Positions 1,231 to 19,347 of a stretch of DNA of 64,000 nt are shown piece after piece (position 1 is the stretch's first letter; each line of letters starts with the position of its first letter). Source of the DNA: a virus (Duplodnaviria > Heunggongvirae > Uroviricota > Caudoviricetes). The notes below the pieces were generated by a model. It made no database searches and was not told the origin of the DNA. It saw nothing but the letters and a program-made list of their open reading frames with translations. A program made the translations under genes and the position numbers. Where the stretch lies: IMG/VR virus record IMGVR_UViG_2537561978_000005; one strand, given 5' to 3'.

Positions 1231-1557
1231 ATGTTTGCAGATTATGAAAATCTGGCTGTAGTAGTCATAACATCCCTACTAAGTGGAACCGGCGTATTCC
1301 TTCTCGGAGTTAGAGACGGGCGCATTTCTGCGTCCCTGCTCAATCTTGCGAGTGAATTGTTTACTGCGGTAACAGCCGGGCTTGCGGGGTATGGGGTGGC
1401 GGTTAGCCAAGAATGGCCTGAAGGTATCATTTTCTGCGTTGTTCTGATTGCCAGTAACAACGGTAGTGAAATTTTACAGGGCTTGAAGTCCAGAGCTAGT
1501 TACGTCTTGAATCTCTTAAGCGTAATAGCGAATGGGGGAAAAGGTGGAGAGAAATAA
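1231..1557 (+). CDS. lydA: Holin-like small membrane protein (LydA-like)
   Basis: 108 aa, three hydrophobic segments plus charged C-terminus; position directly after cin and before a dar-like operon as in P1; assignment by synteny and size only. Confidence 0.5.
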   Translation: MFADYENLAVVVITSLLSGTGVFLLGVRDGRISASLLNLASELFTAVTAGLAGYGVAVSQEWPEGIIFCVVLIASNNGSEILQGLKSRASYVLNLLSVIANGGKGGEK

Positions 1558-2003
1558 TGGGTAACTTTGGAAATTATTTCATTTTTATCATGGCATTTGT
1601 TGCCATCATTGACCGTTTCATTTTTCGTCGCAAGAGTGTTGAGATTTTGAGTATTGGTGACGCTGTAGTGAAAGAATCCGCTATAGCATTTCCTGTTTCG
1701 CTACGTGTTAAGCGAAGCTGGGTCAGCAATGCTCAAATCGAATATTGGTTGCAAGACCTGAAAAATCCATCTGTGGTTATTTCAGGGAAAACGCGACCAG
1801 TTGACGCCTCAAAACGCGGTGAGAGAGAAGAGTATTTGCTCATCGATACGAAATATCTTGAGCCAACGAAGTGGGATCTGAAAGTCACATTGACTAACGG
1901 TAACTGCCGACTGAATCCGCTTTATCGCATTTTCCCTATCAATGACTGCATAGAGCGCCAGTTTACGATCGAAAAGCGTAAAGGAGACTGGGATGTCAAA
2001 TAA
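1557..2003 (+). CDS. lydB: LydB-like protein with N-terminal signal-anchor
   Basis: 148 aa; start overlaps lydA stop (TAATG); hydrophobic N-terminus; synteny-based. Confidence 0.4.
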   Translation: MGNFGNYFIFIMAFVAIIDRFIFRRKSVEILSIGDAVVKESAIAFPVSLRVKRSWVSNAQIEYWLQDLKNPSVVISGKTRPVDASKRGEREEYLLIDTKYLEPTKWDLKVTLTNGNCRLNPLYRIFPINDCIERQFTIEKRKGDWDVK

Positions 2004-2613
2004 GAATAATTATGTTCTTCTTAATTATGATGAGTTAAACGAAAAGGGGCTGGCAAAACTCGTCAAAGAAATCAGCAAAGGTGGTTACAAGATAGCGAGG
2101 GTGATCCCTGCAAGTAATGGCAGGAAGAAAGATGGGATCATGACGCGCACGTTTACCCTTATTGGTATTGATGAACAGACAATGGAAGTTCAGGTTAACG
2201 ATACCGGTGATATATCTGGGATCAAACTGAATGGTAAAACAGTACCGTTCAAGCCAGTAAAAACAATGTCGGCTTTGGGGCAATCTCTTGCGGCTTTATT
2301 TAATCGCGGAGCAACTTCTTTCCAGAAGTCATTAGCTCGAAAACTTGCTCGTGCAGCAAAAAATATTGATGACGGAAATAAGAAGCGGCAGGGAGTTAAA
2401 TCTAACGCTCAGAAATTAGCTGAAGCGAAAGAATCACGTGATGCACTCCGTGAAGATATCGCTAATGCTAACGACAAACTGTCTAAACTCCAGAGCAAGT
2501 CAGACAAAGTAATGCAAGATACGGGTAACGTTAAAGCTGCCTTGTCTCAGGAAGTAGCTAAGACACGTGCTCTTAAAGAAGAAATCGCGCGCCTGGAGGA
2601 TGAGCATGATTAA
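1993..2613 (+). CDS. Hdf-like coiled-coil protein of the dar operon
   Basis: 206 aa, Lys/Ala-rich coiled-coil C-terminus; AGGAG RBS 7 nt upstream; size and position match P1 hdf (recollection). Confidence 0.35.
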   Translation: MSNKNNYVLLNYDELNEKGLAKLVKEISKGGYKIARVIPASNGRKKDGIMTRTFTLIGIDEQTMEVQVNDTGDISGIKLNGKTVPFKPVKTMSALGQSLAALFNRGATSFQKSLARKLARAAKNIDDGNKKRQGVKSNAQKLAEAKESRDALREDIANANDKLSKLQSKSDKVMQDTGNVKAALSQEVAKTRALKEEIARLEDEHD

Positions 2614-4531
2614 CAATCCTTTACGAATTAATATTCAGTCTACTTTTGCTGATACGATCCCCGGCTATGTGCCAAGTCGCTGGTCTTCAGAAGAATTAAG
2701 CGAAGATGACCTGATTTTTGAGGCGGCGACCTTAGAAGATATTGAGCTTGCCTATATGGGCAATGAAATTCTGGTTGTGTCTGACGAAGCTATGTTTGAG
2801 TCCATAACTACAACCAGAATTCGGTTAGCTCAAACAATGCGAGCTTTCGTCCGTGCGCTGAATCGTGGCCTGAATGGTACGAATATTATGGCAGGGACTG
2901 ATGAAGCCGGGACCGATGAAAATGGACGTAATTGTATTGGTGGTGCGATTATCGGTCGTGTACGTCGGGTAGCTAATATCCCTGTTTTGACCGCGCAGAT
3001 ACCGCTTACTGACGGGCAGAGTACAAGCATAATTTTCCACTCTCCAACAGCTGACGGGGCAAAAATAAAGAGTAACGACGAGCTTGTTGCATTTCAGTTT
3101 TTACTTAATAAGCGTAACGTAACTCACGTTGTCGCCCCGATTGGTGGGAGAGATGTTTCTTTAAGCCAGGTATGCCAGGCGCTATCTAATTTGATTGAGC
3201 GTAACAGCGAAAAATTTAAGAAAGCAAAAGAGCGCCAGGACAAAATGAAGGCAGATATTGAGAGTTATCTCAATGAAGCAGATAAACTGGCAGAAGAACG
3301 GTCAATAATGATTGATCAGGTGGACGTTGCGCAACGTGGGCTGACTGAAAAGCGTGCTGCTCTTACGGAGATGCAAAAAAAACTTGATGCCCAGAAAGCC
3401 ATCAACGAGGAATTACAAGAAAAACGCGATAAATTGTTGTCTGCTAAAGGTGAAAAAACGAAGGAACGAGCGTTTAGTGACCAGCTGCGACATGTAAAAC
3501 ATAATCTTGCCATTGACGGAAAAACAGTGCTGGATAATGGCGCTGAAGTTAATTATATCACGTCCGGCAGTGACAATTTCGTTACGATAGTAGCACCTGA
3601 AGGTAAATTCAGTATTGATGCCAGTGCTGTCAAAGGAGGCAGTTTGGCAGATGCTGCAACCAAATTACTTAAAGCCTACCGAGAGCATAACGCAGATAAA
3701 TATAAAGTTGATGTGTTACCAGGCCAGCAGGAAGACCCCGAACCACCACAGACAGACCCCGAGACGAACCCAGTATCACAACCAGAGAGCCAGGATGTAG
3801 GTAAATACCACTATGCACTTCAATCTCGCCCGGCTGGTGTTGGTGCTGTGCCGGATGGAAATAAAGCCGTGCTTGATCGTCCTGACCAGGCTGATCAGTA
3901 TTACGAATATGCTCGTCACGGTATCATTACGTATGACCGTAAACTGACAGATGAAGAAGTCAGCCAGTACGAGTTGCTCTATCTTCCTGATGAAGATGAG
4001 CTGAAAGATTTTGCAGGCCAATTGGTTGTGTCCAGCATGTCGAAACATATTGATGGCTATGTAGACCTGTTTGGCAGTGACCTGAAAACATTCAAGGCGC
4101 AAGTGAAAATTCTTTTCCGCAAAGCGTTTCCAAACGTGGCGTATCCACTTGGTGATGGGGAGAACCTTTTCATTATGGACGTGTATAACGCCCTTCAAAA
4201 TCATTCAAGCGAAGTAAAAACAGAGCATGTGGTTGAGCCGGAATCACAACCACAACCAGCACCAGAACAGGAGCCGGAGCCAGAAGAAGCTGGTGAATCA
4301 GCAAGTGAAGCTGATCAGGAGGCAGATAAAGCACTGGAGTACCTGAAATCCGTGCCGGAGCAGTTTACATCCCGCGATCTGACGGTCATCAGTGCTGAAC
4401 TTGATCATGTGCAGGAAGCAGCAAACGCTCTAATCAGCGCAGGTCGATACGACGAGAACGAAGCCACTGTTGGTGCAGCAGTTGACTACCTGATCAACAT
4501 TCTGGCTGAAATTCAGCAGGGAGGTGCTTAA
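2606..4531 (+). CDS. darA: DarA-like capsid-internal antirestriction protein
   Basis: 641 aa with acidic Pro/Glu-rich linkers; GGAGG 6 nt before ATG 2606 (track start 2567 is an upstream in-frame extension); size and operon position match P1 DarA. Confidence 0.5.
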   Translation: MINNPLRINIQSTFADTIPGYVPSRWSSEELSEDDLIFEAATLEDIELAYMGNEILVVSDEAMFESITTTRIRLAQTMRAFVRALNRGLNGTNIMAGTDEAGTDENGRNCIGGAIIGRVRRVANIPVLTAQIPLTDGQSTSIIFHSPTADGAKIKSNDELVAFQFLLNKRNVTHVVAPIGGRDVSLSQVCQALSNLIERNSEKFKKAKERQDKMKADIESYLNEADKLAEERSIMIDQVDVAQRGLTEKRAALTEMQKKLDAQKAINEELQEKRDKLLSAKGEKTKERAFSDQLRHVKHNLAIDGKTVLDNGAEVNYITSGSDNFVTIVAPEGKFSIDASAVKGGSLADAATKLLKAYREHNADKYKVDVLPGQQEDPEPPQTDPETNPVSQPESQDVGKYHYALQSRPAGVGAVPDGNKAVLDRPDQADQYYEYARHGIITYDRKLTDEEVSQYELLYLPDEDELKDFAGQLVVSSMSKHIDGYVDLFGSDLKTFKAQVKILFRKAFPNVAYPLGDGENLFIMDVYNALQNHSSEVKTEHVVEPESQPQPAPEQEPEPEEAGESASEADQEADKALEYLKSVPEQFTSRDLTVISAELDHVQEAANALISAGRYDENEATVGAAVDYLINILAEIQQGGA

Positions 4532-4899
4532 TGACCATCTCTGTTTTAGACCGCCTGAAATTAGGTAAAGAGCTATCAGATCTAATGCAGGCGCAGAAAA
4601 CGGCGCCAGTATTGCAACGCGTCACCATTGGTAAGCAGATTGTTGATGTGATGCTGAAATTGGGCTTGGGGACTGCCGCGCAACCGGCAGCGGAACCGCA
4701 ACAACAGACTGATCCTGTTGTAGATGAAGTTCCTAAGATAGTGACTGACTTCCTGGGCGGTGTGTTCACAAAGTCCACACAAATGGAATTTATTGATGCG
4801 CTGCGTGGGATCTCAAACTATGTTGGCGAGTTCCTTACGTTGGAACAGGCAAAAGAGCAGACCATAAGCTGGGTGAAAGCCAACGGTTATGCAGGGTAA
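4531..4899 (+). CDS. DdrA-like small protein
   Basis: 122 aa, start overlaps darA stop (TAATG); synteny. Confidence 0.35.
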   Translation: MTISVLDRLKLGKELSDLMQAQKTAPVLQRVTIGKQIVDVMLKLGLGTAAQPAAEPQQQTDPVVDEVPKIVTDFLGGVFTKSTQMEFIDALRGISNYVGEFLTLEQAKEQTISWVKANGYAG

Positions 4900-4904
4900 T
4901 CAAA

Positions 4905-4930
4905 GGGGCTGAAATGCCCCTTTCACTTTC
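4905..4930 (+). terminator. Rho-independent terminator-like hairpin
   Basis: GGGGC-tgaaat-GCCCC followed by TTTCACTTT. Confidence 0.45.
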
Positions 4931-4992
4931 CTGTAAGTCCATAAATCACACACTTTTTACACTTCCTGCTTTCTATGTAAGGGGAGTGTATT

Positions 4993-6378
4993 TTGAACAA
5001 ATCAGTTACTTCTGCGCTTTCCGAGGCCGCAGATATTAACAGCGTCATTGCTCTGGTTTCTTCATTAGAGAGGAAAGAAACACGCCTGGGGCGAAGTAGC
5101 TACGTAGTCACCAGCAAAGGTGCAGAGGTAAAGACGGCTTTTAAGGTCGTTGATGCCAGCAGTCTGATCATTTCGAACAACCTTGACGGTATGATTAACC
5201 CGGCCTTCCCGGAAGAACTCCAACCACGAGATCGTACCCGGCTATCCAGCAAACTCCAGGTTAACCGTATTGCCTCCAATTTACGCCCGGCACAATTAAC
5301 GGATTCCGGTATGAGCAGCCACGGAGCGCCGATAGTTGGTCCGGACAACGTTGTTGAATCCGGCAACGGAAGGAGTATGGGTATCTGGCGTGCCTATGAG
5401 CAAGGACAGGCGGATGAGTATCGCCAGTACCTGATCGACCATGCGAAAGAGTTTGGTCTGAATCCTGACGAAATTTCGCAAATGTCTATGCCCGTACTAG
5501 TGCGAGAAAGACTCACAGATGTAGACCGCGCTCAATTTGCCCGCGATTCAAACATTAGCGATCTGCAAGAGATGGCAGCAAGTGAAAAAGCGTATGCGGA
5601 TGCGCAATTTCTCACTGAGAGCGTCATGGCGCTATTTAATCCTTCAGATGATGGAAATCTGCTGGCGCGGTCCAATGATGCGTTTATTCGTGCGTTTTTG
5701 CGCGAAATTGGCGATACAGCGACGGCAGGCTTGCTTACTGCCGATGGGCGTCCCACGAAACAGCTTATCGATCGCATCCAGAATGCAATTTTTGCCAAAG
5801 CGTACAAGGATGAAAGGCTTGTTCGGCTAGTGTCGGAAGAGCCAGATCCGGAAATGCGTAATATCCTGACCGCATTAAATACGGCAGCCAGCGATTTTGC
5901 GCAAATGCAGTCGCTGTCTGGCGACGCTCACCATGACGCAGTAACAGGCTTAGTGGACGGTATAGAGCAGGTTAATGGCCTGGATAAACAGGCTATTGCA
6001 GCGCTACAGGAAGCAATTAACCTTGTTCGTGAAGCAAAAGATAACGGTCAGGCAGTAGAAGAGGTGATCGCACAGCGTGGATTGTTTGGAGATAGCACTC
6101 CGGAAGCAGAAGCGCTTGCTCTGTTTATTGTTGCCAACAACCGAAGCGCTAAGCGAATGGGGGCCGCTTTCAAGAAACTGGCGCAAAAAATTAACGATGA
6201 ACTTATTCACCAACAACAAGCGTTAGGCGATATGTTCGGCGGCGGAGATGTCGATCTGCGTAGCATTTTATCTGCCGTTTCTGATGAAATTGAGGGTGAA
6301 TTTGGCGAAGGGAAAGGTCTGAACTTTGCTATGTTTGAAAATTCTACAGTTCTAAATAATTGCAGTATGGAAAACTAA
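4993..6378 (+). CDS. DdrB-like protein, first of two ORFs covering the ddrB position
   Basis: 461 aa, TTG start with AAGGGGA RBS; followed after a 64-nt gap by a second ORF; together they occupy about 3.1 kb. Confidence 0.4.
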   Translation: MNKSVTSALSEAADINSVIALVSSLERKETRLGRSSYVVTSKGAEVKTAFKVVDASSLIISNNLDGMINPAFPEELQPRDRTRLSSKLQVNRIASNLRPAQLTDSGMSSHGAPIVGPDNVVESGNGRSMGIWRAYEQGQADEYRQYLIDHAKEFGLNPDEISQMSMPVLVRERLTDVDRAQFARDSNISDLQEMAASEKAYADAQFLTESVMALFNPSDDGNLLARSNDAFIRAFLREIGDTATAGLLTADGRPTKQLIDRIQNAIFAKAYKDERLVRLVSEEPDPEMRNILTALNTAASDFAQMQSLSGDAHHDAVTGLVDGIEQVNGLDKQAIAALQEAINLVREAKDNGQAVEEVIAQRGLFGDSTPEAEALALFIVANNRSAKRMGAAFKKLAQKINDELIHQQQALGDMFGGGDVDLRSILSAVSDEIEGEFGEGKGLNFAMFENSTVLNNCSMEN

Positions 6379-6442
6379 GCCAACCGCTGAAATCACATAC
6401 TGATTATGCTGCCGCAAAACTGGAAACAATTTGCGGTGATTC

Positions 6443-8125
6443 ATGGCAACGAAAGACAAAAACAAAGGCTTTCTGTCAGCATTGAAGAAAGCCTTCAACG
6501 GTGGTGATGTTACGCCCGCCGATCCGGTCGTTTTTACGAGCGGGCATAGTGTCGTTGCTCGTTCCGGCCTGTCTGCTTTACGTCCAGGTATACTGGGGAG
6601 CAACAGCGATGGCATGACGAGTGCAGCAGATTCAATTTCTTTATCCGCTGAACTGCCCGGCGAGCGCCTGCAAAAGTACAACATCCTGGAAACGATGGCT
6701 AAAAGCCCGACTATCTCGACGGCTTTAAACATTCACATTGCACATGCGCTTGCGCCTTCAAAAAAAACCGGACAAGCATTCATCCTTTCGCCAAAGGATG
6801 GTTCCGATGCTGAGGCAGTAAGTAGATGTGAAGAGTTAACCGCTGATTTGGGGGCGATGATTAATGACGGACTTCCTTCATGGGCCATGATTATGGCTAT
6901 CTTTGGGGTGTCTTATGTCCGACCTTATGCTGAACAGGGCAGGGGGATAACAGGCATTGAGTCCAGTTATTACACTCTGCCACACTTCGTCCAGGAGTTT
7001 TATCGTGGTAGCCAGCTGGTAGGTTTCAGTGGTGATTACATTCTGGATACGCATAGTTTGCGCAGAGTAATAACCGAACCGTGGAATCTGGTTTCCATGA
7101 AAAATCCCTATTGGACGCCACAGCATAAAGTTATTCCGGTTAGCTACGGCACAAAAGGGTACTCACTGTTAAGTGATCAGGCTGATAAGCCGTTAATGGA
7201 GACGCAGAATTACGGAACTTCATTCCTGGAATACAGCTATGAACCTTACCTTAATTTATGTGCTTCGCTCGCCGCGCTGAAATCAACGCGAAATAATGCA
7301 GCCAAAATTGACCGCCTGATTGCTCTTACGACGAACACACTGGACCCGGTTAATGCGGCGAACTATACGCGTGGCGTCAGCCAGGCATTGAAGCGTCATA
7401 GTGACCTGGTGGCGCAAAGGTCGATTAATGCCAACGCTATTCCGACTGTGCTTAACCATCTGATACCTGTTATGGGAGACGGGAAGAACGGCATCACCAT
7501 TGATACGCAATCCATACCCGCAGATATCAGTGGTATCGAAGACGTTATGTTTCACCTCCGGCAGCTTGCTGCAAGCCTCGGCATTGACGCAACAATGCTT
7601 GGCTGGGCTGATCAGATGAGCGGAGGGCTTGGAGAAGGCGGCTGGCAGCAAACTGCTATCCAGGCTGCATTGCGTGCGAACTGGATCAGACAGGCCGCCC
7701 AGCGAACTATTTATCGGCTTCTGGACATTCACCTCGCTTATAAATACGGCAAGGTTTACACCGAAACAAACCGCCCTTATGACGTGCAATTCAACTCAAT
7801 GAACACTGCTATCCAGGAAGAGGAAAACCGAGAACTGGATGCACGCGCCAACTTTGTTGCTGTCATCTCCCAAATTATGGACCAGATCCAGAACAACCCG
7901 AAACTGGCTGGTAGCGACGCGTTTATGCGTTATCTGTTCACTGAGCAGTTGCACATCGACGATGACACTCTCAACACCATGATCAAAGAGTTTAAGGCGA
8001 ATGAATCAGAGCAAAACAACGAGCATGGTATGTACGAATCCGCGCCGTTGTCGTCCGGTGACGATCCGGAAAACTGGACGCCAGAACAGTTAATAAACTT
8101 TGCAAAATTTGTGATGAGCAATTAA
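6443..8125 (+). CDS. DdrB-like protein, second ORF
   Basis: 560 aa; ATG 6443 preceded by weak GGTGA; separated from the upstream ORF by a stop and a CCGCAAA...TTTGCGG stem-loop. Confidence 0.4.
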   Translation: MATKDKNKGFLSALKKAFNGGDVTPADPVVFTSGHSVVARSGLSALRPGILGSNSDGMTSAADSISLSAELPGERLQKYNILETMAKSPTISTALNIHIAHALAPSKKTGQAFILSPKDGSDAEAVSRCEELTADLGAMINDGLPSWAMIMAIFGVSYVRPYAEQGRGITGIESSYYTLPHFVQEFYRGSQLVGFSGDYILDTHSLRRVITEPWNLVSMKNPYWTPQHKVIPVSYGTKGYSLLSDQADKPLMETQNYGTSFLEYSYEPYLNLCASLAALKSTRNNAAKIDRLIALTTNTLDPVNAANYTRGVSQALKRHSDLVAQRSINANAIPTVLNHLIPVMGDGKNGITIDTQSIPADISGIEDVMFHLRQLAASLGIDATMLGWADQMSGGLGEGGWQQTAIQAALRANWIRQAAQRTIYRLLDIHLAYKYGKVYTETNRPYDVQFNSMNTAIQEEENRELDARANFVAVISQIMDQIQNNPKLAGSDAFMRYLFTEQLHIDDDTLNTMIKEFKANESEQNNEHGMYESAPLSSGDDPENWTPEQLINFAKFVMSN

Positions 8126-8138
8126 CCGGAGGGAAATA

Positions 8139-9137
8139 ATGCAATCACTGAATACTGTTACGGATCGCTTCTCCCTGGTAGAGAAAATCCGCAAACACAC
8201 ACCGCAGAACAACCGAAATTACGTCATTCAGTCGGTACGAGACACATTCAACTCGCCAGAAACAAAAGAGCGTATCGCGCTGGGTGAGATGTATGGTTAT
8301 TACGGTCATGGTCGCCGGGCGATGCACTATAACAAAACGAAAAGCCTGAACTTGCCGGAAGTCTCTGTTGTGATGGTAGATGGGAAGCCTGTTGTATTGG
8401 AGAACGTGCCGTCAAACAGGACTATCGACATTTCGATTGACGACAACGGCATTGTTACTCATACGCAGGAAATACTGGATACAGACACCGGGCGTATTGT
8501 TCAGGGCATGATTAATTCTGGTGCTGGTGGTTGGTCGTGGGCTACATCTGGTCCAGATTCATCGGTATCCCTGGTAAAGTCTTTCCACGGCTTTGATTAC
8601 GTAACTGTGCCTAACTATATCAGCCTCGACAAGAAAAGCCTGATGCTTGAATCAGCAGAAGAGCGCGATGCGGCTATTCATGCAGCACTTATCGAACAAG
8701 GTTTTACCGATAACGCTGCTACGGATCTGGTTCACCACTTTTCAGCAATGAAAAATCAGCAAGCCATGCTCGAATCTGCACATCGTGAAGCCCTGGAATC
8801 AGAATTGATGCTCCTTGAAGTGGAAAACATACAGCTTCGAGATAAGCTGCGCGCTCAAACAGCGATGATGGAAAGCCAGGGGGAAAATGCAAAGCAATAC
8901 CGCCGGATTTTGCGTGAAGCTATCCAGGAAATGCCTGTTTTTATCAGCGCAGAACAGCGCCGGGCGCTCTGCCGTATGCAGTCTGAAGATGATGCCCGCA
9001 TAGTGGCTGCGATGCTTGAATCTCTTGGGGCAAATGCTACTTATGGCTTACCGGTATCAGGCAAGAAAGAACCAGAGTTATCACCGAAGGAGAACAAAAA
9101 CACTACCCCGTTACTCTTCGTTTCCAGAAGGGGGTAA
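8139..9137 (+). CDS. Hypothetical protein with coiled-coil C-terminal half
   Basis: 332 aa ORF, strong RBS CCGGAGGG before ATG. Confidence 0.6.
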   Translation: MQSLNTVTDRFSLVEKIRKHTPQNNRNYVIQSVRDTFNSPETKERIALGEMYGYYGHGRRAMHYNKTKSLNLPEVSVVMVDGKPVVLENVPSNRTIDISIDDNGIVTHTQEILDTDTGRIVQGMINSGAGGWSWATSGPDSSVSLVKSFHGFDYVTVPNYISLDKKSLMLESAEERDAAIHAALIEQGFTDNAATDLVHHFSAMKNQQAMLESAHREALESELMLLEVENIQLRDKLRAQTAMMESQGENAKQYRRILREAIQEMPVFISAEQRRALCRMQSEDDARIVAAMLESLGANATYGLPVSGKKEPELSPKENKNTTPLLFVSRRG

Positions 9138-9151
9138 TCGCCTTGTTAAGT

Positions 9152-9276: not shown

Positions 9277-9337
9277 GGTGTATAAATCCACTGCCATAGA
9301 TTTATACGGTAGATAGATTTTTTCACGGAACTATCTG

Positions 9338-10938: not shown

Positions 10939-11645
10939 TGGGTATCTGCATTCTCGAAAAACTATCAATGACCAGCATTGAGATTGCGGAGCTGGTGGGA
11001 AGCCAACACTCTGACGTTAAACGTAGTATTGAGCGTATGGTTGCTCGAAGCATTATCCGAAAACCGCCAATGGCTGTTTTCGAAAAAATCAATAACTTAG
11101 GATTGCGTCGTGGCGTTGAGGCTTACGTCTTCGAAGGCGAGCAAGGCAAACGAGACAGCATCATTGTCGTCGCGCAGCTCTCTCCCGAATTCACCGCCCG
11201 GCTGGTGGACCGCTGGCGCGAACTGGAAGAACAAGTACGCCAGCCGTTGACCGAAATAGAGATGATCGCTGCAATGGCTGCGAATGCAGTTCAGCAGCAA
11301 AAGCTGATTCATGCTGTTGAGTCAAAGGTTAGCCAGGTCGCTGAAACCGTCGAGCAAATAAAGAAAGGCAATATTCCGGAAGGCTACATTGGCTACCGCC
11401 AGTTGGCGGCGAAATGCGGCCTGACTGAAGCCAAATGCCGAAACCTTGTCAACGCTTACCGGATTCCCACCGATACACATGAGTTTTTGACTCCAGAGGG
11501 GGTATTGTCGCGTCGTTCCATCGTGGCCTTATCTCCCTTCATGAATGCTTTTAACCGGATGATGTCGGAGGCTGAACACCGAGGAAAACGCTGGTATCAC
11601 CCCAAAATGGGGCAATTCCAGGTGATCGGTTGGGGAGGTGAGTGA
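10938..11645 (+). CDS. Rha-family antirepressor (Ant-like), N-terminal 235 aa ending at a premature stop
   Basis: MTSIEIAELVGSQHSDVKRSIERM is the phage pRha N-terminal motif; start overlaps icd stop (TGATG); paralogue 49677..50618 is 313 aa and continuous. Confidence 0.6.
   Translation: MGICILEKLSMTSIEIAELVGSQHSDVKRSIERMVARSIIRKPPMAVFEKINNLGLRRGVEAYVFEGEQGKRDSIIVVAQLSPEFTARLVDRWRELEEQVRQPLTEIEMIAAMAANAVQQQKLIHAVESKVSQVAETVEQIKKGNIPEGYIGYRQLAAKCGLTEAKCRNLVNAYRIPTDTHEFLTPEGVLSRRSIVALSPFMNAFNRMMSEAEHRGKRWYHPKMGQFQVIGWGGE
11133..11237. repeat. About 105-bp patch about 95% identical to 49873..49977
   Basis: Direct nucleotide comparison of the two ant paralogues. Confidence 0.8.
11341..11496. repeat. 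About 156-bp patch about 95% identical to 50101..50256
   Basis: Direct nucleotide comparison; flanking sequence is much more diverged. Confidence 0.8.
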
Positions 11646-11841
11646 TGGACATCATGCAGGCGGTAAAAAAATCAGGGAAGGACAGGCTGAAGTGTGCCGC
11701 CGTAAAGCATGGAGTGTTGGTGTATGGGCCTGGCCTGATAATTACTCTACTACCGGATGGTTTTGTATTAATGGACTCCAGATCCGGGAAGTTGATTTAT
11801 CGACGGCTGATATAGTCGGTAATGATTGGATCGTGACTTGA
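11638..11841 (+). CDS. Ant C-terminal fragment in +1 frame (homologous to C-terminus of 49677..50618)
   Basis: EVCRRKAWSVGVWAWPDN and VDLSTADIVGNDWIVT align with IVCRRASWPEGVWVWPEG and IDLAPEDVVATDWIVS of the intact paralogue; GTG start overlaps upstream stop. Confidence 0.5.
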   Translation: MSDGHHAGGKKIREGQAEVCRRKAWSVGVWAWPDNYSTTGWFCINGLQIREVDLSTADIVGNDWIVT

Positions 11842-11850
11842 AGCGTGATG

Positions 11851-11875
11851 CCCCGGCCTGGCCGGGGCTTTTTTC
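11851..11875 (+). terminator. Rho-independent terminator between convergent genes
   Basis: CCCCGGC-ctg-GCCGGGG followed by CTTTTTT. Confidence 0.6.
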
Positions 11876-12359
11876 ATGCCTCATTAGTTGAGGTTGCTGC
11901 GTCTCCGACTGGTAACAGGGCGGTATTGCGTGGTTCGCCAGCAGGCCAGCGATAGCCAGACACTCTTGATGTTGGGAATGCGCGAATATTAACCGCATCC
12001 CCCTGGTTCCCACCCAGGACAAGCAGATCGCCATTGGCGCGGCGTCCGACAACGAAGCCTACGTGCCCACCGCCTACGCGGGTAAATACAACGATACATC
12101 CGTATGCCGGTGTATCTAATTTCTCGCCCCAATCCAGATAGGATTTTGCCGACTCAAATCTTGTTGAGCGAATGCCTACACGTTCCAGCATTGCACCGAC
12201 AAATGCTGCGCACCACGGCGTTTCATCGTCTTTAATTCCGCCGCGCTTGATGTCGCGCCAGAACTGAACGATTTCAGGGTTGTGTTTAGCGCCTTTTATT
12301 TCAGTCAAGCCAATGTGCTTACGGGCTTCAATTAGCCAGCGAGGTTCAATGTTTGCCAT
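11874..12359 (-). CDS. Papain-like (CHAP/NlpC-P60-type) putative cell-wall hydrolase
   Basis: 161 aa with conserved Cys (ETPWCAAFV) and His (GGHVGFVVG) spaced as in CHAP amidases; RBS GGGAGA. Confidence 0.5.
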   Translation of the reverse strand: MANIEPRWLIEARKHIGLTEIKGAKHNPEIVQFWRDIKRGGIKDDETPWCAAFVGAMLERVGIRSTRFESAKSYLDWGEKLDTPAYGCIVVFTRVGGGHVGFVVGRRANGDLLVLGGNQGDAVNIRAFPTSRVSGYRWPAGEPRNTALLPVGDAATSTNEA

Positions 12360-12510
12360 ATTTTTCTCCCGGTCATGGGTTAATAAGTAGGCAAACTATG
12401 GGGAGTATGTGATTTTGACGGTAGTATCGTCCCCCTGAAAATAACATTCTCCATACCCTCTCAACCGTACCGCATAGCGGAATTTTTTACGGTTTAGAGG
12501 GGGAAATCCT

Positions 12511-15500
12511 TTGGACAAACTACTTCATTCAATCAGTGAAGCCTCCAGCTTAGGCGAACTGATTGAAATTGTTAGTCGGTTGCATAAATTACGTGCTGTT
12601 GCGACCTTTGGCGTCAGGAAAGCCGATGGCGTCAGTATTCAGAAAACACGCCGGGCAGCAAACAATGCCGCAGTAAATCTTCTTAATTCCCTTCCGCCCG
12701 GCTTCGATGGGGCGAAATTAACTGACGAACAACGTCAGATTCTTGCTGGGTATACCGGTGAAGGCGGCCTGACAGATGGTGAGGGCAGCCAATACGAATA
12801 CTACACGCCACAGTTTATGGCTGAAGGTATATGGGAGCTGTTTGCTGACTACGGTATTGATGGCGGTCACGTACTGGAACCATCAGCTGGCACGGGTATT
12901 TTCCAGGAGACAAAACGGCAGGGAATGATAATGACCAGCGCCGAGCTGTCTCCGATCTCCGGTCGAATCAACCAGCTGTTGCACCCGGAAGACGATGTGA
13001 ACATTGGGGCGTTTGAGGCTCTGGCGGCGAAAGACGCAATGTATGACCACGCTGTTGGTAACGTACCGTTTGGCGAAGGCCGTTCCGGCGTTGCAGGGCT
13101 TGATCCGGCATATGCAAACGAGAAGAACGTTGGCAATTACTTTGTGCTGCGCACGATCGACAAGGTTAAACCTGGTGGGCTTATCGTATTGGTGGTGCCG
13201 AATGGCATGACTGATGGTACGAAATACAAAAAATTGCGCGATAAAGTCAGCCGTAAAGCGGAATTTTTGGGCGCGCATCGTATGCCTTCCGGTACGTTCA
13301 GTGAATCAGGTACAGATACCGTGGTGGACGTATGGGTATTGCGTAAACACCCGGAAGCCTTCCTGGAGATGATCCCCGATACGGATGATTCGACGCTCAA
13401 ATCGGCAAACGTCCTTTGGGTTACCTTCCTCAAAGGGAAATGGTTTACAACCGAAGGGAAGCGATTTGTTTACGGCGACATGGAACGTACCAGCTTCCGC
13501 AATACCCTAGTGGTGAAAAAAGACGGTCGTGTATCCAATGAGTCGATGAAAACCGCGCTATCTCGTCGCTTTGATAGTCGCATCAATTGGGATTTGCTCG
13601 GCGTAACTACTCAGGCATGGCAGGGCGCGAAAGTGGGCGATAAACGCCTTGTAGGCGGTATCTGGCATGAGTTTGATGGTCTGAAATGGGTTCAGGACAC
13701 GACAACCAAATCCTCCGCGCTTGATGTAAGTCGATATGGTGTTTCGACGTTTGGCGATCTGCAGATCGCGTTCCAGTCAACAAACGGGATTCTGGCTTTG
13801 TCATGGGACCAGATATCGGCGATCGCGTCCGACTATCCATCGGTTGTCAGTGATGAAGTGGCAGCAATGATTCGCTTTGCTGGCAAGCAGCGAGAAAAAG
13901 ACAGGGAGCGCGTTATGCGCGGTGCACTGATAGGTCAGTTGATCAACAAGGCACTTGATTTGCGTAACCTGGGGGTGAACGTTGATGACAAACTGGCAGA
14001 TGCATCCCGCTTGGCGGCAGCAGAAGTTGCGAAGTATGGACCACCGCACGCGATTAAGCTGAATGGGCTTGCTGAAGCTGGCGCTAAAAACTGGATGACG
14101 TTCACTGGCAATGTGAAACAGGATGGTTCCACTTCTGACCTTCTGGCAGGGCGACTTGATGTAACGGATGGTGCTGCCGGTATTGACTTTACGCGTCCTG
14201 AACAAGTGATAGCACATCTTTTTAGTGATGTAGCCCTTAATCCTATAACGCTGGGCGACTTTCGTGAGGCGTTTGCTGGTGAACTGCCAGAGGACGACGA
14301 CGCGGTCCTTGAATACCTGGCGAAATTTGATGATATCGCTATTGATGGGTATGGCTGTCTGCTGCCGATGGACCGCGCCACCAGCGGCGATGTTGCAACC
14401 AAAACAGCACTGCTGGTGGGCTGGCGTGATGCGTCAACAGGTGAGCAGAAAGCGAACTTTGAGCGTCAGTTGGCGAAAATCGAAGAGAAACGCATTTTCA
14501 CGCCACTAAATAAAGTCACCGTTAATCTGAATGCCCGCTGGCTGGATCGCCGCTTGATAAAAGAGTTCCTGGCAGAGCAGGGCTATGACGAGTTTAAGTA
14601 CACTGAACCTGATCTGAAGGTCGTCGATGGCATTCTGGTATCTCCGGACGATTACGAAGGTAAGGACGGGGTATTTACCGGCTATCAGCTACGAACCGTA
14701 AACGGCAAAAACGGGAATGAGTTCAAGAAGGCCAACAATAAAGACGGCTTCCTGAACCAGTTAGAAAACTACCTGAACGGTGTTAAACCGCGTGGGCAGA
14801 ACGCTAACGAGTACCTGGATAAAATTGCTCAACTGGAAGTTAGCTTTAACGACTGGTTACGCACCCACCCGCAGGCGGATCAGATAGCCCGTGACTATAA
14901 CGACGCATTCAATGGTTTCATTCCGTTCACACATTCTGACGCACCGCTTGGCCTGGAAGGGATTAGTGGAAAGCGCATTCCTCTGACTTATCAGAATGAA
15001 GAAGTTCGGCGCTTGTCAGAAGATGGGCGTGGCATCATGGGATTTGGTACCGGGCTGGGTAAAACCACGACCGCGCTTGCGCTTGAGGCGTATAACTTCG
15101 AAACAGGTCGCACTAAACGCACGTGTATTGTTGTTCCGAAGGCGGTTTATCAGAACTGGTATCACGAGGCACAGAGTTTCTACAGTGCTGATGCCTTCGC
15201 CAATATGATGTTTATCGGTTTGGATGAAGTTCGTGATGACAGCGGAAATATTCTGACCGCGCCGGTGCTTGATGAAAATGGCGAACCACGCCTCGACAGT
15301 AACGGGCAGCCTCTTACCAGAAATGTTGTGAAAGAGTCCTCCAGCGCCGTTATCGTTCAGCGTATGAACATGATCCCGTCGTCAAATTGGCGAACGGTCA
15401 TCATGACAAAAGAACAATTCGCGTCTATCCCGCTACGAGAAAAAACCATCGAGGAGAACTCACAGCAAGCTGTCTTTAATGCTGTGGAAATGGGGCGTCT

Positions 15501-18500
15501 TGACCTGGCGTCCGGTAAACACCGTGATGCGCAGAAGAAGAACAAGATTAAGGATCAGGCCGCGAATACCGGTACAACGAAGAAGCAGAATATCCCTTAC
15601 TTTGAGGATATGAACTTCGATAGCGTGATTGCCGACGAGGGGCATAACTACCGCAACTCCTTTAATGCCGGGCGTGAAGCGGGACAACTGGCATATTTGC
15701 CTAACCCGGCAGTATCCAAGATGGCCCGCGACATGGCTGTAAAAGCTGCGTACATGATGAAACGCAACAACGGGCGTGGTGTAGTCATGCTGACGGCAAC
15801 ACCGCTGGTGAACAGTCCGATTGATGCCTTCAACATGCTGTCTACTGTCATTCCGCAGGAAGAGTGGATGCGTATGGGCATCATTACGCCTGATGATTTC
15901 GTTCGTGTGTTTGGCAAAACAGCCACAGTTCAGGTCCAGAAAATTTCCGGGGAAGTGGAAGAGAAGCAGGGGCTGGTGGGCTTCCAGAACCTTGACGGCC
16001 TGCGTGGTATTTTCCATCGTTGGACCACTCTGAAGACTGCTGCAGATGTCGGAGCGACGGTTAAAATTCCCGACATCATCGAGAACACCTTGCAGATCCC
16101 GATGACAGGGGAGCAGGAGACTGCTTATGAAGAGCTTCGTAAGCGTGCTCAGGAGTTAAGTCGCAATGATGAGCTGACAGTCGATGAAAACGGGCATATC
16201 ACTAACGACAAACCGGATGATTTCATCTTCTCCATCATCCGTGACATGGATAAGGTTGCTATAGACCCGGATCTGTATGCCAGTGCGATTACATTCCAGT
16301 TCCCCGTTGAGCTTGCAGACCAGGTAAAAGCTATTGCTGATGCCTTGCCAAAAGTAGCTGGCGGTAAAGTGGCAGATGATGTTGATGAGGCCGAGGAAGA
16401 CGGCGCTGGCGGGCTGGTCAGTACGCGTACCAGCAAGGTAGTGAAGACCGCTTTTAGTGAACATCCGACGCATGTTGAAATACGTGCCAGCATTGAACTG
16501 GAAGCTGAAATACTGAAGGCCATTGCGGCTGCCGGCATTGATATGCAGCAGGTGTCGCACCCCATCCCGCCGAAGTATGCCGCGCTGATCGAAAATCTTC
16601 GTGAAGGTCTGAAGAACGGTAAGCAGATCGTCTTTATTGATGAAAAAGCCCAGCACCAGAAGCTGCGCCGTATTATCGCCAGTGCACTGCAAATGCCGGA
16701 GCAGGAGATTGGCATTATCAATGCGACGACAGTTAGCCAGGCTGGTGGCATCAAGCTGAAGAAGGTGAATAAGCCGACCGAACCTACTCCAAACAAAAAC
16801 GGTGAATACAAAGAAGGGGCATGGGAAACCTACTACAGCAAACTTGCCCAATATGAGGATTATCTCTCCGCTAAAAATGATGCTGGCCTTGAGGGCATGG
16901 AAGGTATTGCCGCCGACTATAACGAAGGTCGCACGCGCATCATAATCTGTAACAAGAAGGCTGAAGTAGGTATTAACCTGCACATCGGGACAACCGATAT
17001 CCACCACCTGACACTACCCTGGACACCAGCCAGTATCGACCAACGAAATGGGCGCGGTGCGCGCGTAGGTTCACCGCAAGAAAAGGTCAATGTTCACTAC
17101 TATTGTGGCAAAGGCACATTCGACGACTTCCGTCTGGATACGCTGAAACGTAAGAAAGACTGGATCAAGATGGTGATGACATCCGACATGTCAGAGATCG
17201 CCAATGGTGATGCGGATGATGCTGATGAACGCGCCATTATGCTGGCGGCAAACCCGGAAGAACGCCGCGCAATCATGGCTCGCCAGGCGCAAGAGCGTGA
17301 AGAACGTCTGAAACTGAAAGCACAGCGCGAGGCCAACAATGCTCTCGATATCTACCTGAAAGCGGCAAACGCCGCCGGAAAAGATATCGGCATGATGGAG
17401 ACAGAACTGAAAAGCGCGATGGAACAGATAGAGTATTACCAGCGCAATCTTGACGACCTGATAAAAGCGGGTACGAACAGGAATGGGCAAAAATACGCGC
17501 TTGAGCAGTTGAGTAGCTACAGAAAACGTGCGCGGGTGCTGCGGTTTGCGATCACCAGGGCAAAAGACGCGGATACCATAATGAAACGCTCTCGTGGTGA
17601 TGTGGAGCGCGCTATTAAGTCTGGTGTGCTGGATATCAGTATCGATGTTATTCAGAACCCACAGGAATATATGCGCACTGACAAGAATATCCTGTTGCAT
17701 AAAGGTAGTTATTACCGTGCAGTCATTGATGATCGCGAAACAACAGCGATTGTCCGGGTGGAAAAAATTGACGGTGAAAAAGCACAATACCTCTGCCGTA
17801 TCGCCTGGCTGGATAGAGCAAGTCGTTACGCTCGAGCACCGGGGTCAATCGTTACATTGCCGTTTGACTCTGTGATTGAAGCGGTAACTTTTGAAGAGGG
17901 GGTAGCTGAATCGCGCGCAACGGCTGCGCGTGGTGTTCAGTGCCACCAGCTATCAACAATACTTACTCGCGATCAGTTCTATGATGCTATTCGCAATGGG
18001 GTAATGAATGTTATTGCTGGTAAACCTGGTAATGCATGGGGCGGTGGGTCAGCTATTAAATACTGGGCATATCGCACAGATGATGGTCAGATCGCGCTGT
18101 CATCGGCCTATGATGGCGTGATAGGCCAAAAAATCGGGCGAGCATCGGATATAGCACCTGAGCGATGGATATATCCTGATGGCAACGACGAGGCGCTGAA
18201 GCGTGAAGTGGCAAAAATACAAGCCAGTGATAACCCGCTGAATATCGTGGACGGCGAGGGATTCCTCCAGGCATTGTATGGGTATGATTACACCCAGGGA
18301 ATGCAGGCATGGGGCGCACAGGCAACGATGGATGATGTTGCCCATGAGTTCGAAAACTGGATGGCTGGGCGTGGTCTGTCAGGTCGTTCGCTTAATAAAG
18401 TCACTTCTGAAGATATTCTTAGCTTGTTCCGCAAACCGTCCGGAGAAGGTCTGGAATCATTCTGGAGGACCGTGCTGGCATACCGTTTATTCCAGGGCAG

Positions 18501-19347
18501 GATGAAAGCCTTTAGCAATATCGATGATATTGAACGGATGTTTAATCAGGTCAAGATCGCGAAAATTAAGGCGAAGATCGAAAAAACACGTTCTGCGCTG
18601 GTGGCCTGGCGCGATGCATTGTTTGAGCAATATAAATCACTCAGTGATGCAGATGGATGGGCGGCATTGGAACAGCTGGCGAATAATGGGGTAGATGGAG
18701 CGAAACTCGCCATTGTTCAGGCTGATAACCCCCTGGAATCACCGGCAGCACAGTGGATTAAGGTGGGGGCTGTCATCAATGCATTTGATGAAAAACACAT
18801 TAGTAAGGACGATTTTGCTGATGCTGTTTCTGTTAATCGCCTGGTAGAAATGGCTACCCGCCGCGCCCGTGAGTTGAAAGACGGCGACTATGTGAATGAG
18901 TTGCCGGATACGCTCAAATCGGCAACGTGGCAGGACTATGTATCGCTGAAAAACGGCGGGGCCACTGAATCAGAGATCGCGGAAAGGCTTGAGCAGGCTG
19001 AAAGCAAAAGAGAAGAGCAGGCGGCAGTGGCTGAAGCCAGAGCTGATGAAGCGGCGAATGATGACTATATCATTGTGGTTAATGATAAGCCGATTCGCGC
19101 TAAGGCGCGTGTTCGCGGGCGCTGGTGGAGCGTCAGCGAGGACGTTGGCGCGGTTTATCTCATTGCCGACCAACCAGGTTCCTCGACAATACGGAACGCC
19201 AAAGACGCGATTAAGAAGATTGGCGGACGTTTCTGGAATTTTGAAGCAAACCCGGTTGCTGATGTGAACTTTGACCGTCCTGCATGGATGGTATCTACGC
19301 GTTACTCGGTAGATGAACTGCGTAAAATAATCGCCGATGCGGCCTAA
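12511..19347 (+). CDS. darB: DarB-like giant methyltransferase-helicase fusion protein
   Basis: 2278 aa; N-terminal SAM-MTase motifs (VLEPSAGTGIF, GNVPFG); helicase motifs GFGTGLGKTT (Walker A), VIADEGHNY (DEGH), LTATPLVNSPID; TTG start with AGAGGGGG RBS. Confidence 0.55.
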   Translation: MDKLLHSISEASSLGELIEIVSRLHKLRAVATFGVRKADGVSIQKTRRAANNAAVNLLNSLPPGFDGAKLTDEQRQILAGYTGEGGLTDGEGSQYEYYTPQFMAEGIWELFADYGIDGGHVLEPSAGTGIFQETKRQGMIMTSAELSPISGRINQLLHPEDDVNIGAFEALAAKDAMYDHAVGNVPFGEGRSGVAGLDPAYANEKNVGNYFVLRTIDKVKPGGLIVLVVPNGMTDGTKYKKLRDKVSRKAEFLGAHRMPSGTFSESGTDTVVDVWVLRKHPEAFLEMIPDTDDSTLKSANVLWVTFLKGKWFTTEGKRFVYGDMERTSFRNTLVVKKDGRVSNESMKTALSRRFDSRINWDLLGVTTQAWQGAKVGDKRLVGGIWHEFDGLKWVQDTTTKSSALDVSRYGVSTFGDLQIAFQSTNGILALSWDQISAIASDYPSVVSDEVAAMIRFAGKQREKDRERVMRGALIGQLINKALDLRNLGVNVDDKLADASRLAAAEVAKYGPPHAIKLNGLAEAGAKNWMTFTGNVKQDGSTSDLLAGRLDVTDGAAGIDFTRPEQVIAHLFSDVALNPITLGDFREAFAGELPEDDDAVLEYLAKFDDIAIDGYGCLLPMDRATSGDVATKTALLVGWRDASTGEQKANFERQLAKIEEKRIFTPLNKVTVNLNARWLDRRLIKEFLAEQGYDEFKYTEPDLKVVDGILVSPDDYEGKDGVFTGYQLRTVNGKNGNEFKKANNKDGFLNQLENYLNGVKPRGQNANEYLDKIAQLEVSFNDWLRTHPQADQIARDYNDAFNGFIPFTHSDAPLGLEGISGKRIPLTYQNEEVRRLSEDGRGIMGFGTGLGKTTTALALEAYNFETGRTKRTCIVVPKAVYQNWYHEAQSFYSADAFANMMFIGLDEVRDDSGNILTAPVLDENGEPRLDSNGQPLTRNVVKESSSAVIVQRMNMIPSSNWRTVIMTKEQFASIPLREKTIEENSQQAVFNAVEMGRLDLASGKHRDAQKKNKIKDQAANTGTTKKQNIPYFEDMNFDSVIADEGHNYRNSFNAGREAGQLAYLPNPAVSKMARDMAVKAAYMMKRNNGRGVVMLTATPLVNSPIDAFNMLSTVIPQEEWMRMGIITPDDFVRVFGKTATVQVQKISGEVEEKQGLVGFQNLDGLRGIFHRWTTLKTAADVGATVKIPDIIENTLQIPMTGEQETAYEELRKRAQELSRNDELTVDENGHITNDKPDDFIFSIIRDMDKVAIDPDLYASAITFQFPVELADQVKAIADALPKVAGGKVADDVDEAEEDGAGGLVSTRTSKVVKTAFSEHPTHVEIRASIELEAEILKAIAAAGIDMQQVSHPIPPKYAALIENLREGLKNGKQIVFIDEKAQHQKLRRIIASALQMPEQEIGIINATTVSQAGGIKLKKVNKPTEPTPNKNGEYKEGAWETYYSKLAQYEDYLSAKNDAGLEGMEGIAADYNEGRTRIIICNKKAEVGINLHIGTTDIHHLTLPWTPASIDQRNGRGARVGSPQEKVNVHYYCGKGTFDDFRLDTLKRKKDWIKMVMTSDMSEIANGDADDADERAIMLAANPEERRAIMARQAQEREERLKLKAQREANNALDIYLKAANAAGKDIGMMETELKSAMEQIEYYQRNLDDLIKAGTNRNGQKYALEQLSSYRKRARVLRFAITRAKDADTIMKRSRGDVERAIKSGVLDISIDVIQNPQEYMRTDKNILLHKGSYYRAVIDDRETTAIVRVEKIDGEKAQYLCRIAWLDRASRYARAPGSIVTLPFDSVIEAVTFEEGVAESRATAARGVQCHQLSTILTRDQFYDAIRNGVMNVIAGKPGNAWGGGSAIKYWAYRTDDGQIALSSAYDGVIGQKIGRASDIAPERWIYPDGNDEALKREVAKIQASDNPLNIVDGEGFLQALYGYDYTQGMQAWGAQATMDDVAHEFENWMAGRGLSGRSLNKVTSEDILSLFRKPSGEGLESFWRTVLAYRLFQGRMKAFSNIDDIERMFNQVKIAKIKAKIEKTRSALVAWRDALFEQYKSLSDADGWAALEQLANNGVDGAKLAIVQADNPLESPAAQWIKVGAVINAFDEKHISKDDFADAVSVNRLVEMATRRARELKDGDYVNELPDTLKSATWQDYVSLKNGGATESEIAERLEQAESKREEQAAVAEARADEAANDDYIIVVNDKPIRAKARVRGRWWSVSEDVGAVYLIADQPGSSTIRNAKDAIKKIGGRFWNFEANPVADVNFDRPAWMVSTRYSVDELRKIIADAA

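Follow-up and report, generated by a model that had tools for sequence, protein, structure and literature searches.

A probable copy of the P1 Dar antirestriction system on a D6-like, P1-related phage-plasmid

Does the window, a 64,000-nucleotide stretch of DNA from a Caudoviricetes virus, carry the Dar antirestriction system of phage P1, and in what form? The P1 system was reportedly described by Iida in 1987 and by Piya in 2017. An earlier note on the window had proposed, from synteny, protein sizes and motifs, a complete Dar set within positions 1231–19347, consisting of a lydA-lydB-hdf-darA-ddrA-ddrB-like operon and a separate gene for a 2278-aa methyltransferase-helicase. The open reading frames that it listed were all present at their coordinates on the plus strand (Table 1), and BLASTP against the P1 Dar proteins, the check that it had suggested, was positive for all components (E 1e-22 to 0). 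All six components of the P1 system (Hdf, DarA, DdrA, DdrB, DarB, and Ulx; Gonzales 2022; Zheng 2026) have homologues here with 33–64% identity, and tblastn with the P1 proteins revealed a single locus per component. Over positions 1093–20000, the window shares 98% DNA identity with the P1-like plasmid prophage Escherichia phage D6. Judged from sequence homology, the window very probably belongs to a phage-plasmid that is D6-like and related to P1, and the flagged genes are this element's copy of the Dar system of P1. In D6, near-identical genes are already annotated as such.

Table 1. Coordinates of the Dar genes and associated features in the window
Feature	Coordinates	Strand	Remark
Possible LPdar counterpart (tentative)	1186..1204	+	late-promoter -22 box near-match
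lydA-like holin gene	1231..1557	+	first gene of the operon; lysis gene, no Dar component
lydB-like holin antagonist gene	1557..2003	+	lysis gene, no Dar component
hdf	1993..2613	+	DarA-N-domain internal head protein, DarA partner
darA	2606..4531	+	internal head protein; capsid-anchored and DNA-binding in P1
ddrA	4531..4899	+	identified by BLASTP and PHROG
Hairpin	4902..4923	+	read from sequence, ddrA-ddrB gap
ddrB, short form	4993..6378	+	TTG start; 461 aa; ParB-like N-terminal half only
pro, prohead protease gene	8139..9137	+	not Dar; 43% identical to P1 Pro, E 7e-84
darB	12511..19347	+	2278 aa; N6-adenine methyltransferase-like, SNF2/DExH helicase, lineage-specific C-terminal region
ulx	19384..19818	+	sixth Dar component

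The operon has the same order as in P1, with a positive BLASTP match for every gene, and in both phages darB is followed by ulx. Its first five genes, from lydA to ddrA, overlap or abut each other, which is a typical operon layout. Between ddrA and ddrB lie 93 bp with the hairpin AAAGGGGC-TGAAAT-GCCCCTTT, which the terminator scan did not list because no T-run follows it. LydA is 43% identical to P1 LydA (BLASTP, E 1e-22), belongs to PHROG 1527 (holin, E 2e-38), and is 99% identical to D6 orf30. LydB is 34% identical to its P1 counterpart (BLASTP, E 8e-29) and 99% identical to D6 orf29, and scores 87.5 bits with the Pfam LydB profile (cut-off 28). The two internal head proteins share their DarA/Hdf domains with P1. 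Hdf is 40% identical to P1 Hdf (BLASTP, E 1e-30) and 99.5% identical to the D6 protein, and is recognized by Pfam DarA_N (64.9 bits) and by the PHROG "Hdf-like antirestriction" (E 1e-76); it also matches the solved P1 Hdf chain (PDB 9UKM_H, E 3e-25). DarA is 39% identical to P1 DarA over 620 aa (BLASTP, E 4e-141) and matches the solved P1 DarA chain (PDB 9UKM_I, E 6.5e-124). It contains both Pfam DarA_N and DarA_C (136.5 and 68.1 bits, cut-off 27), and its score of 1151.9 bits with the NCBIfam equivalog NF052326 (anti_RE_DarA) is more than threefold the cut-off of 350. The darA reading frame opens at GTG 2567; the ATG at 2606 is likely the actual start, since it is the one used in D6 and agrees with the PHROG and NCBIfam alignments. 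Compared with D6 orf27, the window protein is 96% identical and has a 4-aa deletion.

DdrA is 33% identical to P1 DdrA over 118 aa (BLASTP, E 8e-22) and matches the PHROG "DdrA-like anti-restriction protein" (E 5e-50); relative to D6 orf26 it is 93% identical with a 2-aa deletion. DdrB aligns with residues 2–442 of the 995-aa P1 DdrB at 64% identity (BLASTP), and the shared ParB-like domain is recognized by Pfam ddrB-ParB with 144.6 bits. In contrast to P1, the metallopeptidase half is absent: tblastn with P1 DdrB residues 443–995 had no match in the window, nor anywhere in the D6 genome. The zincin-like C-terminal metallopeptidase of P1 DdrB has a proposed autoprocessing role. D6 orf25 is 97% identical to the window DdrB, differing in the last ~8 residues, and has the same short form. 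The short DdrB bears on its full equivalence to P1 DdrB, not on the Dar membership of the whole locus.

The giant protein matches P1 DarB collinearly with 43% identity over residues 1–1935 (BLASTP, 1524 bits), and is 99.5% identical to D6 orf15. Its gene begins with a TTG codon after a GAGGGGG Shine-Dalgarno sequence, and the same start is called in D6. The N-terminal methyltransferase motifs described in the earlier note are present, with motif I (VLEPSAGTGIF) at residues 121–131 and motif IV (NVPF, an NPPF variant also found in P1 DarB) at residues 184–187. The Pfam N6_Mtase match at residues 151–281 is borderline (20.7 bits, cut-off 20.4). The helicase, which had been described as a C-terminal DEAH type, has instead a central core (residues ~825–1520) with DEGH, as in P1, and the pattern DE[AVCSIH]H matches nowhere in DarB. 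Residues 826–1048 match Pfam SNF2-rel (46.7 bits) and ResIII (24.5 bits), residues 1464–1520 match Helicase_C (24.3 bits), and the motifs are GLGKT at 848, DEGH at 1042 (motif II), TAT at 1095, and QRNGRGAR at 1511. Of these motifs, I and IV of the methyltransferase and I, II, III, and VI of the helicase are conserved between this DarB and that of P1.

The two ends of DarB differ more from P1. The first 30 residues of P1 DarB are a capsid-targeting signal, in which residues 6–10 are critical. Eight of the first 30 residues are identical here, and the P1 MGVFR reads HSISE, with no consensus known for the signal; it may co-evolve with the D6 capsid. At the other end, the last ~340 residues have no similarity to P1 DarB. 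An exhaustive HMMER search with the C-terminal 719 aa found 32 matches among 1.8 billion representative proteins. The full-length matches are all proteins of ~2200–2300 aa and the rest are shorter or fragments, and none of these matches gave a functional clue to the region. Among the same 1.8 billion representatives, the ~340-aa module is full-length in only one other protein, of ~2290 aa. Some shorter proteins and fragments carry it as well. A word-indexed protein search with the 719 aa returned near-identical fragments only, and the single-sequence AlphaFold2 model of this region (mean pLDDT 42, pTM 0.23) is unusable. A PDB sequence search with DarB gave only generic methyltransferase and INO80 helicase matches (E ~1e-3).

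Ulx is 46% identical to P1 Ulx (BLASTP, E 3e-43) and 100% identical to D6 orf14, and falls into the PHROG "Ulx-like anti-restriction" (E 2e-59). The P1 literature treats it as a sixth Dar component that helps DarB to be incorporated. The Dar set is complete only when ulx is added, and it remains incomplete in that DdrB lacks the P1 peptidase half. The span first assigned to the set does hold the other Dar genes, but misses ulx by 37 bp and includes ~6 kb of unrelated genes (6443–12359), namely those for the portal and the prohead protease, repL, c4-icd-ant, and a CHAP hydrolase gene. Two of these genes adjoin the Dar operon: prt, whose portal product is 50% identical to that of P1, and pro, whose D6 counterpart (orf21) is annotated "head processing protease". 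In P1, Pro processes the N-terminus of DarA (PMC12810830). The neighborhood is arranged differently from that of P1. In the window, prt-pro points the same way as the dar operon, and the interval from ddrB to darB contains repL and an immI-like c4-icd-ant region, whereas P1 darB is divergent from prt with IS1, ssb, and lyz in between. Homologues of P1 lxc and hxr were not found in the window.

Regulatory signals were inspected as well. The strict P1-type late promoter pattern (-22 box AAGTGACT, a spacer of 4–6 nt, then TAnnnT) was searched across the window; there was no match upstream of lydA or darB, and the only clean one is at 55543 on the minus strand. The sequence AACTGACTA fits eight of the nine positions of the P1 -22 box (AAGTGACTA/T). 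It is located ~26 nt upstream of the lydA ATG, the corresponding distance of P1 LPdar being 28 nt, and is accompanied by a poor -10 element (TAGTGG or AGTGGC). We tentatively regard it as a candidate counterpart of the P1 late promoter LPdar. A generic sigma-70 and terminator scan was uninformative, with results below shuffle expectation. Beside the invertase gene at 442–1014, no P1 or D6 cix site was found within five mismatches.

The collinearity with D6 extends over the whole window, and the head, tail, lpa, pacAB, c1, and cre homologues of D6 are P1-like, in keeping with genes encoded by a P1-like myophage that has the Pro protease. The lydA-ddrB genes, darB, and ulx keep the D6 gene order with 97–98.5% DNA identity (MF356679 / NC_050154), and the D6 GenBank record labels orf30–25, orf15, and orf14 as "similar to P1 lydA, lydB, hdf, darA, ddrA, ddrB, darB, ulx". 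The finding is therefore correct but ordinary. The two elements differ directly downstream of ddrB, where 1110 bp of D6 correspond to 51 bp in the window, and D6 orf24 (DUF4145) and orf23 are absent from the window. They also differ upstream of 1093, where the invertase region of the window has no match to D6. About 97 E. coli plasmid records match at least 80% of a 20-kb query in one match, and the best rows among them are 96–99% identical. The darB-ulx block is present in 93 of 5426 complete E. coli genomes, on ~90-kb plasmids. D6-like phage-plasmids are frequent in clinical and animal E. coli and in Salmonella.

By homology to P1, which is its sole basis, a Dar function of these genes can be proposed, with the steps taken from the work on P1 (PMC12810830, PMC9024508, PMC12707154). 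Expression of the lydA-lydB-hdf-darA-ddrA(-ddrB) operon and of darB-ulx would take place late in the lytic cycle. Hdf and DarA would enter the procapsid first, bind DNA and the inner capsid surface, and help set the head size, and DarA would be trimmed by the Pro protease. Hdf and DarA would then permit the incorporation of DdrA, DdrB, Ulx, and lastly DarB. Upon infection, the Dar proteins would exit the head along with the DNA and give it cis protection against type I restriction. In P1, EcoA-type enzymes are countered by DarA, Hdf, and DdrA, whereas DarB, Ulx, and DdrB deal with those of the EcoB/EcoK type (PMC12810830, PMC9024508, PMC12707154). Packaging into the virion, co-injection, and the restriction systems countered may be similar for the proteins of the window. 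A literature search, outside the D6 genome paper and Piya et al. 2017, found no antirestriction experiments on D6 or D6-like elements. It is rather doubtful that the D6-type Dar has become functionally different from that of P1, with another defence spectrum (e.g., BREX or other type I families) and with the DarB C-terminus as a specificity or target-recognition module. In such a variant, the autoprocessing step would not be needed, as DdrB is without its peptidase half.

The homology also has to be weighed against other explanations of the locus. According to the earlier note, similarity confined to generic methyltransferase and helicase motifs would speak against a Dar assignment. That sizes, synteny, and such common motifs account for the whole likeness has practically no credence left, since eight proteins in conserved order gave BLASTP E values from 1e-22 to 0, the family-specific profiles DarA_N, DarA_C, ddrB-ParB, and NF052326 all scored above their thresholds, DarA aligned over 620 aa, and DarB homology extended well past the enzyme cores. 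Together with the PDB 9UKM matches, these BLASTP, Pfam, and NCBIfam results refute that reading, which retained no support after testing. The 2278-aa protein could also be seen not as an injected antirestriction protein but as an enzyme of the plasmid prophage that defends the host or resembles a restriction enzyme (for example a relative of DISARM DrmD, BREX, or type ISP proteins), given that its RefSeq name is just "SNF2-related protein" and that the C-terminal lobe of its helicase has weak NCBIfam matches to DISARM DrmD, DpdE, and a Dnd restriction enzyme. Those matches score 28–45 bits against cut-offs of 500–1100 and cover generic helicase lobes only, and other DISARM or BREX genes are absent alongside darB. 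The collinear homology to P1 DarB starts from residue 1, and ulx follows immediately downstream exactly as in P1. This reading is thus extremely improbable, and we rejected a DISARM, BREX, or restriction-enzyme assignment of DarB on the sub-threshold NCBIfam scores and the P1 DarB homology.

An explanation closer to the Dar assignment is that the homologues of the D6 lineage serve mainly or only capsid morphogenesis, antirestriction having been lost or redirected to BREX or other type I families. The loss or redirection is suggested by the truncated DdrB and the replaced C-terminus of DarB. P1 Hdf and DarA are indeed head-size determinants that stabilize penton-hexon junctions, and P1 Dar reportedly also guards against BREX. 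On the other hand, DarB, with 43% overall identity to its P1 counterpart, keeps the P1 catalytic motifs of both the methyltransferase and the helicase, and its 6.8-kb reading frame is intact at 99.5% protein identity to D6. The conserved motifs, the intact frame, and the 93 genomes carrying darB-ulx argue for selection on DarB function. Ulx and DdrA are retained as well, and neither has a reported morphogenetic role in the P1 papers covered. We thus consider a mainly or purely morphogenetic locus improbable and favor the reading as a D6-type Dar system.

The importance of that Dar system beyond the right annotation is small. On many E. coli plasmids, the automated RefSeq names are "SNF2-related protein", "hypothetical protein", or "olxA"; recognizing the genes as Dar is therefore useful annotation housekeeping. 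Evasion of type I restriction by D6-like phage-plasmids would bear on how readily their own and any transduced DNA crosses strain barriers. The D6 and P1 forms, with the short DdrB and the alternative DarB C-terminus, represent a natural experiment on which Dar parts are needed. The Dar proteins resemble "polyvalent proteins" and injected internal head proteins, which are likewise large, multidomain, encoded late or as virion proteins, and delivered with DNA for counter-defence; it was the work on such proteins (Iyer et al. 2017) that defined the domains DdrB-ParB and DarA-N. In polyvalent proteins the ParB-like domain usually comes with a processing metallopeptidase, whereas in the window DdrB it stands alone. 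T4 IPI is a small inhibitor of unrelated origin, which acts by binding to the restriction enzyme and not, as predicted for the Dar proteins, by travelling with the DNA.

Sequence comparison supports the interpretation, put forward in the earlier note, that the flagged genes are a Dar antirestriction system, here that of the D6-like phage lineage. The ORF list contains all genes on which it was based, namely six plus-strand genes at the start of the block, the first five of which (lydA to ddrA) overlap or abut, and a 2278-aa ORF further downstream. The set, which had been called complete at 1231-19347, becomes complete only when a ulx homologue starting 37 bp past that end is added. The span itself also holds other genes. 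lydA and lydB share the dar operon but are lysis genes (holin and antiholin), not Dar components, and 6443-12359 is occupied by unrelated genes: portal prt, prohead protease pro, repL, an immI-like c4 RNA-icd-ant region, a small ORF, and a minus-strand CHAP-domain hydrolase. The latter, a 161-aa peptidoglycan hydrolase just upstream of darB on the opposite strand, matches the C-terminal lysozyme part of the PHROG 'baseplate hub subunit and tail lysozyme' family and has no counterpart at this position in P1.

Features of the window, with BLASTP identity to P1 proteins (NC_005856) and the D6 genes annotated in GenBank as similar to the P1 gene of the same name
Feature	Coordinates	Strand	Identity to P1	D6 gene	Remark
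-22 box	1186-1194
lydA	1231-1557	+	43%	orf30
lydB	1557-2003	+	34%	orf29
hdf	1993-2613	+	40%, E 1e-30	orf28	spelt 'hfd' in D6 record
darA	2606-4531	+	39%, 620 aa, E 4e-141	orf27	ORF list begins earlier, GTG 2567
ddrA	4531-4899	+	33%, E 8e-22	orf26
Hairpin	4902-4923
ddrB	4993-6378	+	64% to P1 aa 2-442	orf25	93 bp after ddrA
CHAP hydrolase	11874-12359	-
darB	12511-19347	+	43%, aa 1-1935 vs P1 1-1924, 1524 bits	orf15	2278-aa ORF
ulx	19384-19818		46%, E 3e-43	orf14
Invertase	442-1014	+
immI-like region 1	10461-11645				c4-a1b1 and C4, 10461-10666
Five tRNA genes	23781-25073
immI-like region 2	49197-50372				isrK and C4, 49197-49407
Late-promoter match	55525-55543	-

The similarity to P1 is specific rather than generic, as several searches agree. 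In BLASTP, the check proposed in the earlier note, the Dar components are 33-64% identical to their P1 counterparts, and tblastn over the whole window places each P1 protein at a single locus. Pfam detects DarA_N in both Hdf and DarA, as well as DarA_C, ddrB-ParB, and LydB; DarB contains N6_Mtase (aa 151-281), SNF2-related/ResIII (826-1048), and Helicase_C (1464-1520). The Hdf-like, DdrA-like, and Ulx-like antirestriction families of PHROGs are matched, the NCBIfam DarA equivalog NF052326 reaches 1152 bits (cut-off 350), and in the PDB, DarA and Hdf match P1 cryo-EM chains (9UKM_I, E 6.5e-124, and 9UKM_H, E 3e-25, respectively). The resemblance to P1 DarA and DarB hence exceeds generic motifs, and a chance resemblance to Dar is excluded.

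DarB has N-terminal methyltransferase motifs, VLEPSAGTGIF (aa 121-131) and NVPF (184-187), the latter variant being likewise present in P1 DarB. Its helicase had been described as C-terminal and of DEAH type. In fact, the helicase core is central, with motifs I (GLGKT), II, III (TAT), and VI (QRNGRGAR) at aa 848, 1042, 1095, and 1511 of 2278, and motif II reads DEGH, as in P1. Identity to P1 DarB drops to about 20% beyond aa ~1570, and for the final ~340 aa BLAST finds no match in the P1 protein. An exhaustive HMMER search with aa 1560-2278 yielded only 32 matches among 1.8 billion representatives. The full-length matches are all proteins of ~2200-2300 aa, the others are shorter proteins or fragments, and P1-type giants align only to query position ~380, i.e., DarB aa ~1940. 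Judging from these matches, the DarB tail is a lineage-specific module. A single-sequence structure prediction of aa 1560-2278 was too poor for use (pLDDT 42). The first 30 residues, which in P1 DarB are enough for capsid targeting, share only 8/30 identities with P1.

DdrB is the best-conserved Dar protein, but with 461 aa it covers just the ParB-like, N-terminal half of P1 DdrB (995 aa). tblastn finds the C-terminal half neither in the window nor in the complete D6 genome. This half of the P1 protein is a zincin-like metallopeptidase, by which DdrB has been proposed to process itself ahead of packaging (PMC5512222). The ddrA-ddrB gap, only 12 bp in P1, contains a perfect 8-bp GC-rich hairpin, AAAGGGGC TGAAAT GCCCCTTT, with no T-run after it. 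This hairpin might act in RNA processing or stability, or terminate transcription in part and so lower the dose of DdrB.

Phage D6 (Escherichia phage, MF356679/NC_050154) is a P1-like, circular plasmid prophage. A megablast search with positions 1-20000 gave 98.0% identity to D6 over 1093-20000, and 97 plasmid records had a single match covering at least 80% of this 20-kb query; among them, E. coli plasmids of ~89-96 kb match best, with 96-99% identity. Collinearity with D6 extends over the remainder of the window except for some mosaic stretches: the accessory regions at 34935-46775 and 50903-54356 show poor similarity to D6 or none. Window and D6 proteins are 93-100% identical (DarB 99.5%, Ulx 100%). 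'Anti-restriction modules' with P1 homologues have been described in D6-like Salmonella prophages (PMC6799933). RefSeq automated names hide the Dar identity in the majority of database entries for D6-like plasmids: in the matching plasmid and E. coli genome records, DarB is called 'SNF2-related protein', whereas Ulx appears as 'olxA' or 'hypothetical protein'. In D6, the 1110 bp directly 3' of ddrB (D6 7268-8377) hold orf23 and orf24, the latter coding for a DUF4145 protein, whereas the window has only 51 bp (6339-6389). The Dar operon thus seems to adjoin a variable site for accessory genes. A TnpB gene of the IS200/IS605 type occurs somewhere within the same 20-kb block in some related plasmids.

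By homology to P1, Hdf and DarA would be incorporated into the procapsid at an early stage. The penton-hexon junctions of P1 are lined by 55 DarA-Hdf pairs, which also touch the DNA (PMC12810830, PMC9024508, PMC12707154). Pro would trim DarA, the incorporation of DdrA, DdrB, Ulx, and DarB would depend on Hdf and DarA, and all Dar proteins would be ejected with the DNA, giving cis protection from type I restriction. DarA, Hdf, and DdrA would act against EcoA and StySA, whereas DarB, Ulx, and DdrB would act against EcoB and EcoK. The genes might instead be mainly morphogenetic, with their antirestriction spectrum altered or lost. This is possible but less likely, because DarB has retained its catalytic motifs and many plasmids keep the 6.8-kb darB intact (of 5426 complete E. 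coli genomes, 93 have darB-ulx at ≥80% coverage, nearly always plasmid-borne). Against DarB being a DISARM- or BREX-like defence protein, its NCBIfam matches to such proteins are sub-threshold and involve generic helicase lobes only. The Dar reading describes an already known system in a known phage lineage. The peptidase-less DdrB and alternative DarB C-terminus of the D6 type could shift the spectrum of countered defences.

The surroundings differ from P1 in that prt-pro is co-directional with the dar operon and repL and immI lie between ddrB and darB; homologues of lxc and hxr are absent. A search of the window for P1-type late promoters gave no clear one upstream of lydA or darB. An 8/9 match to the -22 box lies at a position equivalent to P1 LPdar, with a poor -10 element. 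The sole clean match in the window, AAGTGACTT-TCAT-TAATCT, is upstream of baseplate gene-26 and gene-25 homologues. It suggests that Lpa-type late promoters exist in the D6-like lineage, although none is recognisable before the dar genes.

Positions 1-1093 do not match D6; many D6-like plasmids share them, and their identity to an E. coli phage record labelled 'P88' is 99%. The serine invertase encoded there belongs to the Cin/Hin family (73% identity to P1 Cin) and is oriented towards lydA, whereas the P1 and D6 invertases are oriented away. No P1 or D6 cix site occurs near it within 5 mismatches, and by analogy with hin it may lie inside an invertible segment. The five tRNA genes (Asn-GTT, Tyr-GTA, Thr-TGT, Ser-TGA, and Met-CAT) compare with three annotated in D6 (Ser, Thr, and Asn), and the DNA there matches D6 at only 87-88%. 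Two immI-like regions are present. In the first, Rfam detects a c4-a1b1 target and C4 antisense RNA, with icd and ant behind them; in the second, it detects isrK and another C4 RNA, and another ant-like gene follows. No other segment of the window is as similar to P1 in DNA as the first region (93% over 10454-10825), and D6 likewise has two icd/antirepressor pairs (orf18-19 and orf82-83).
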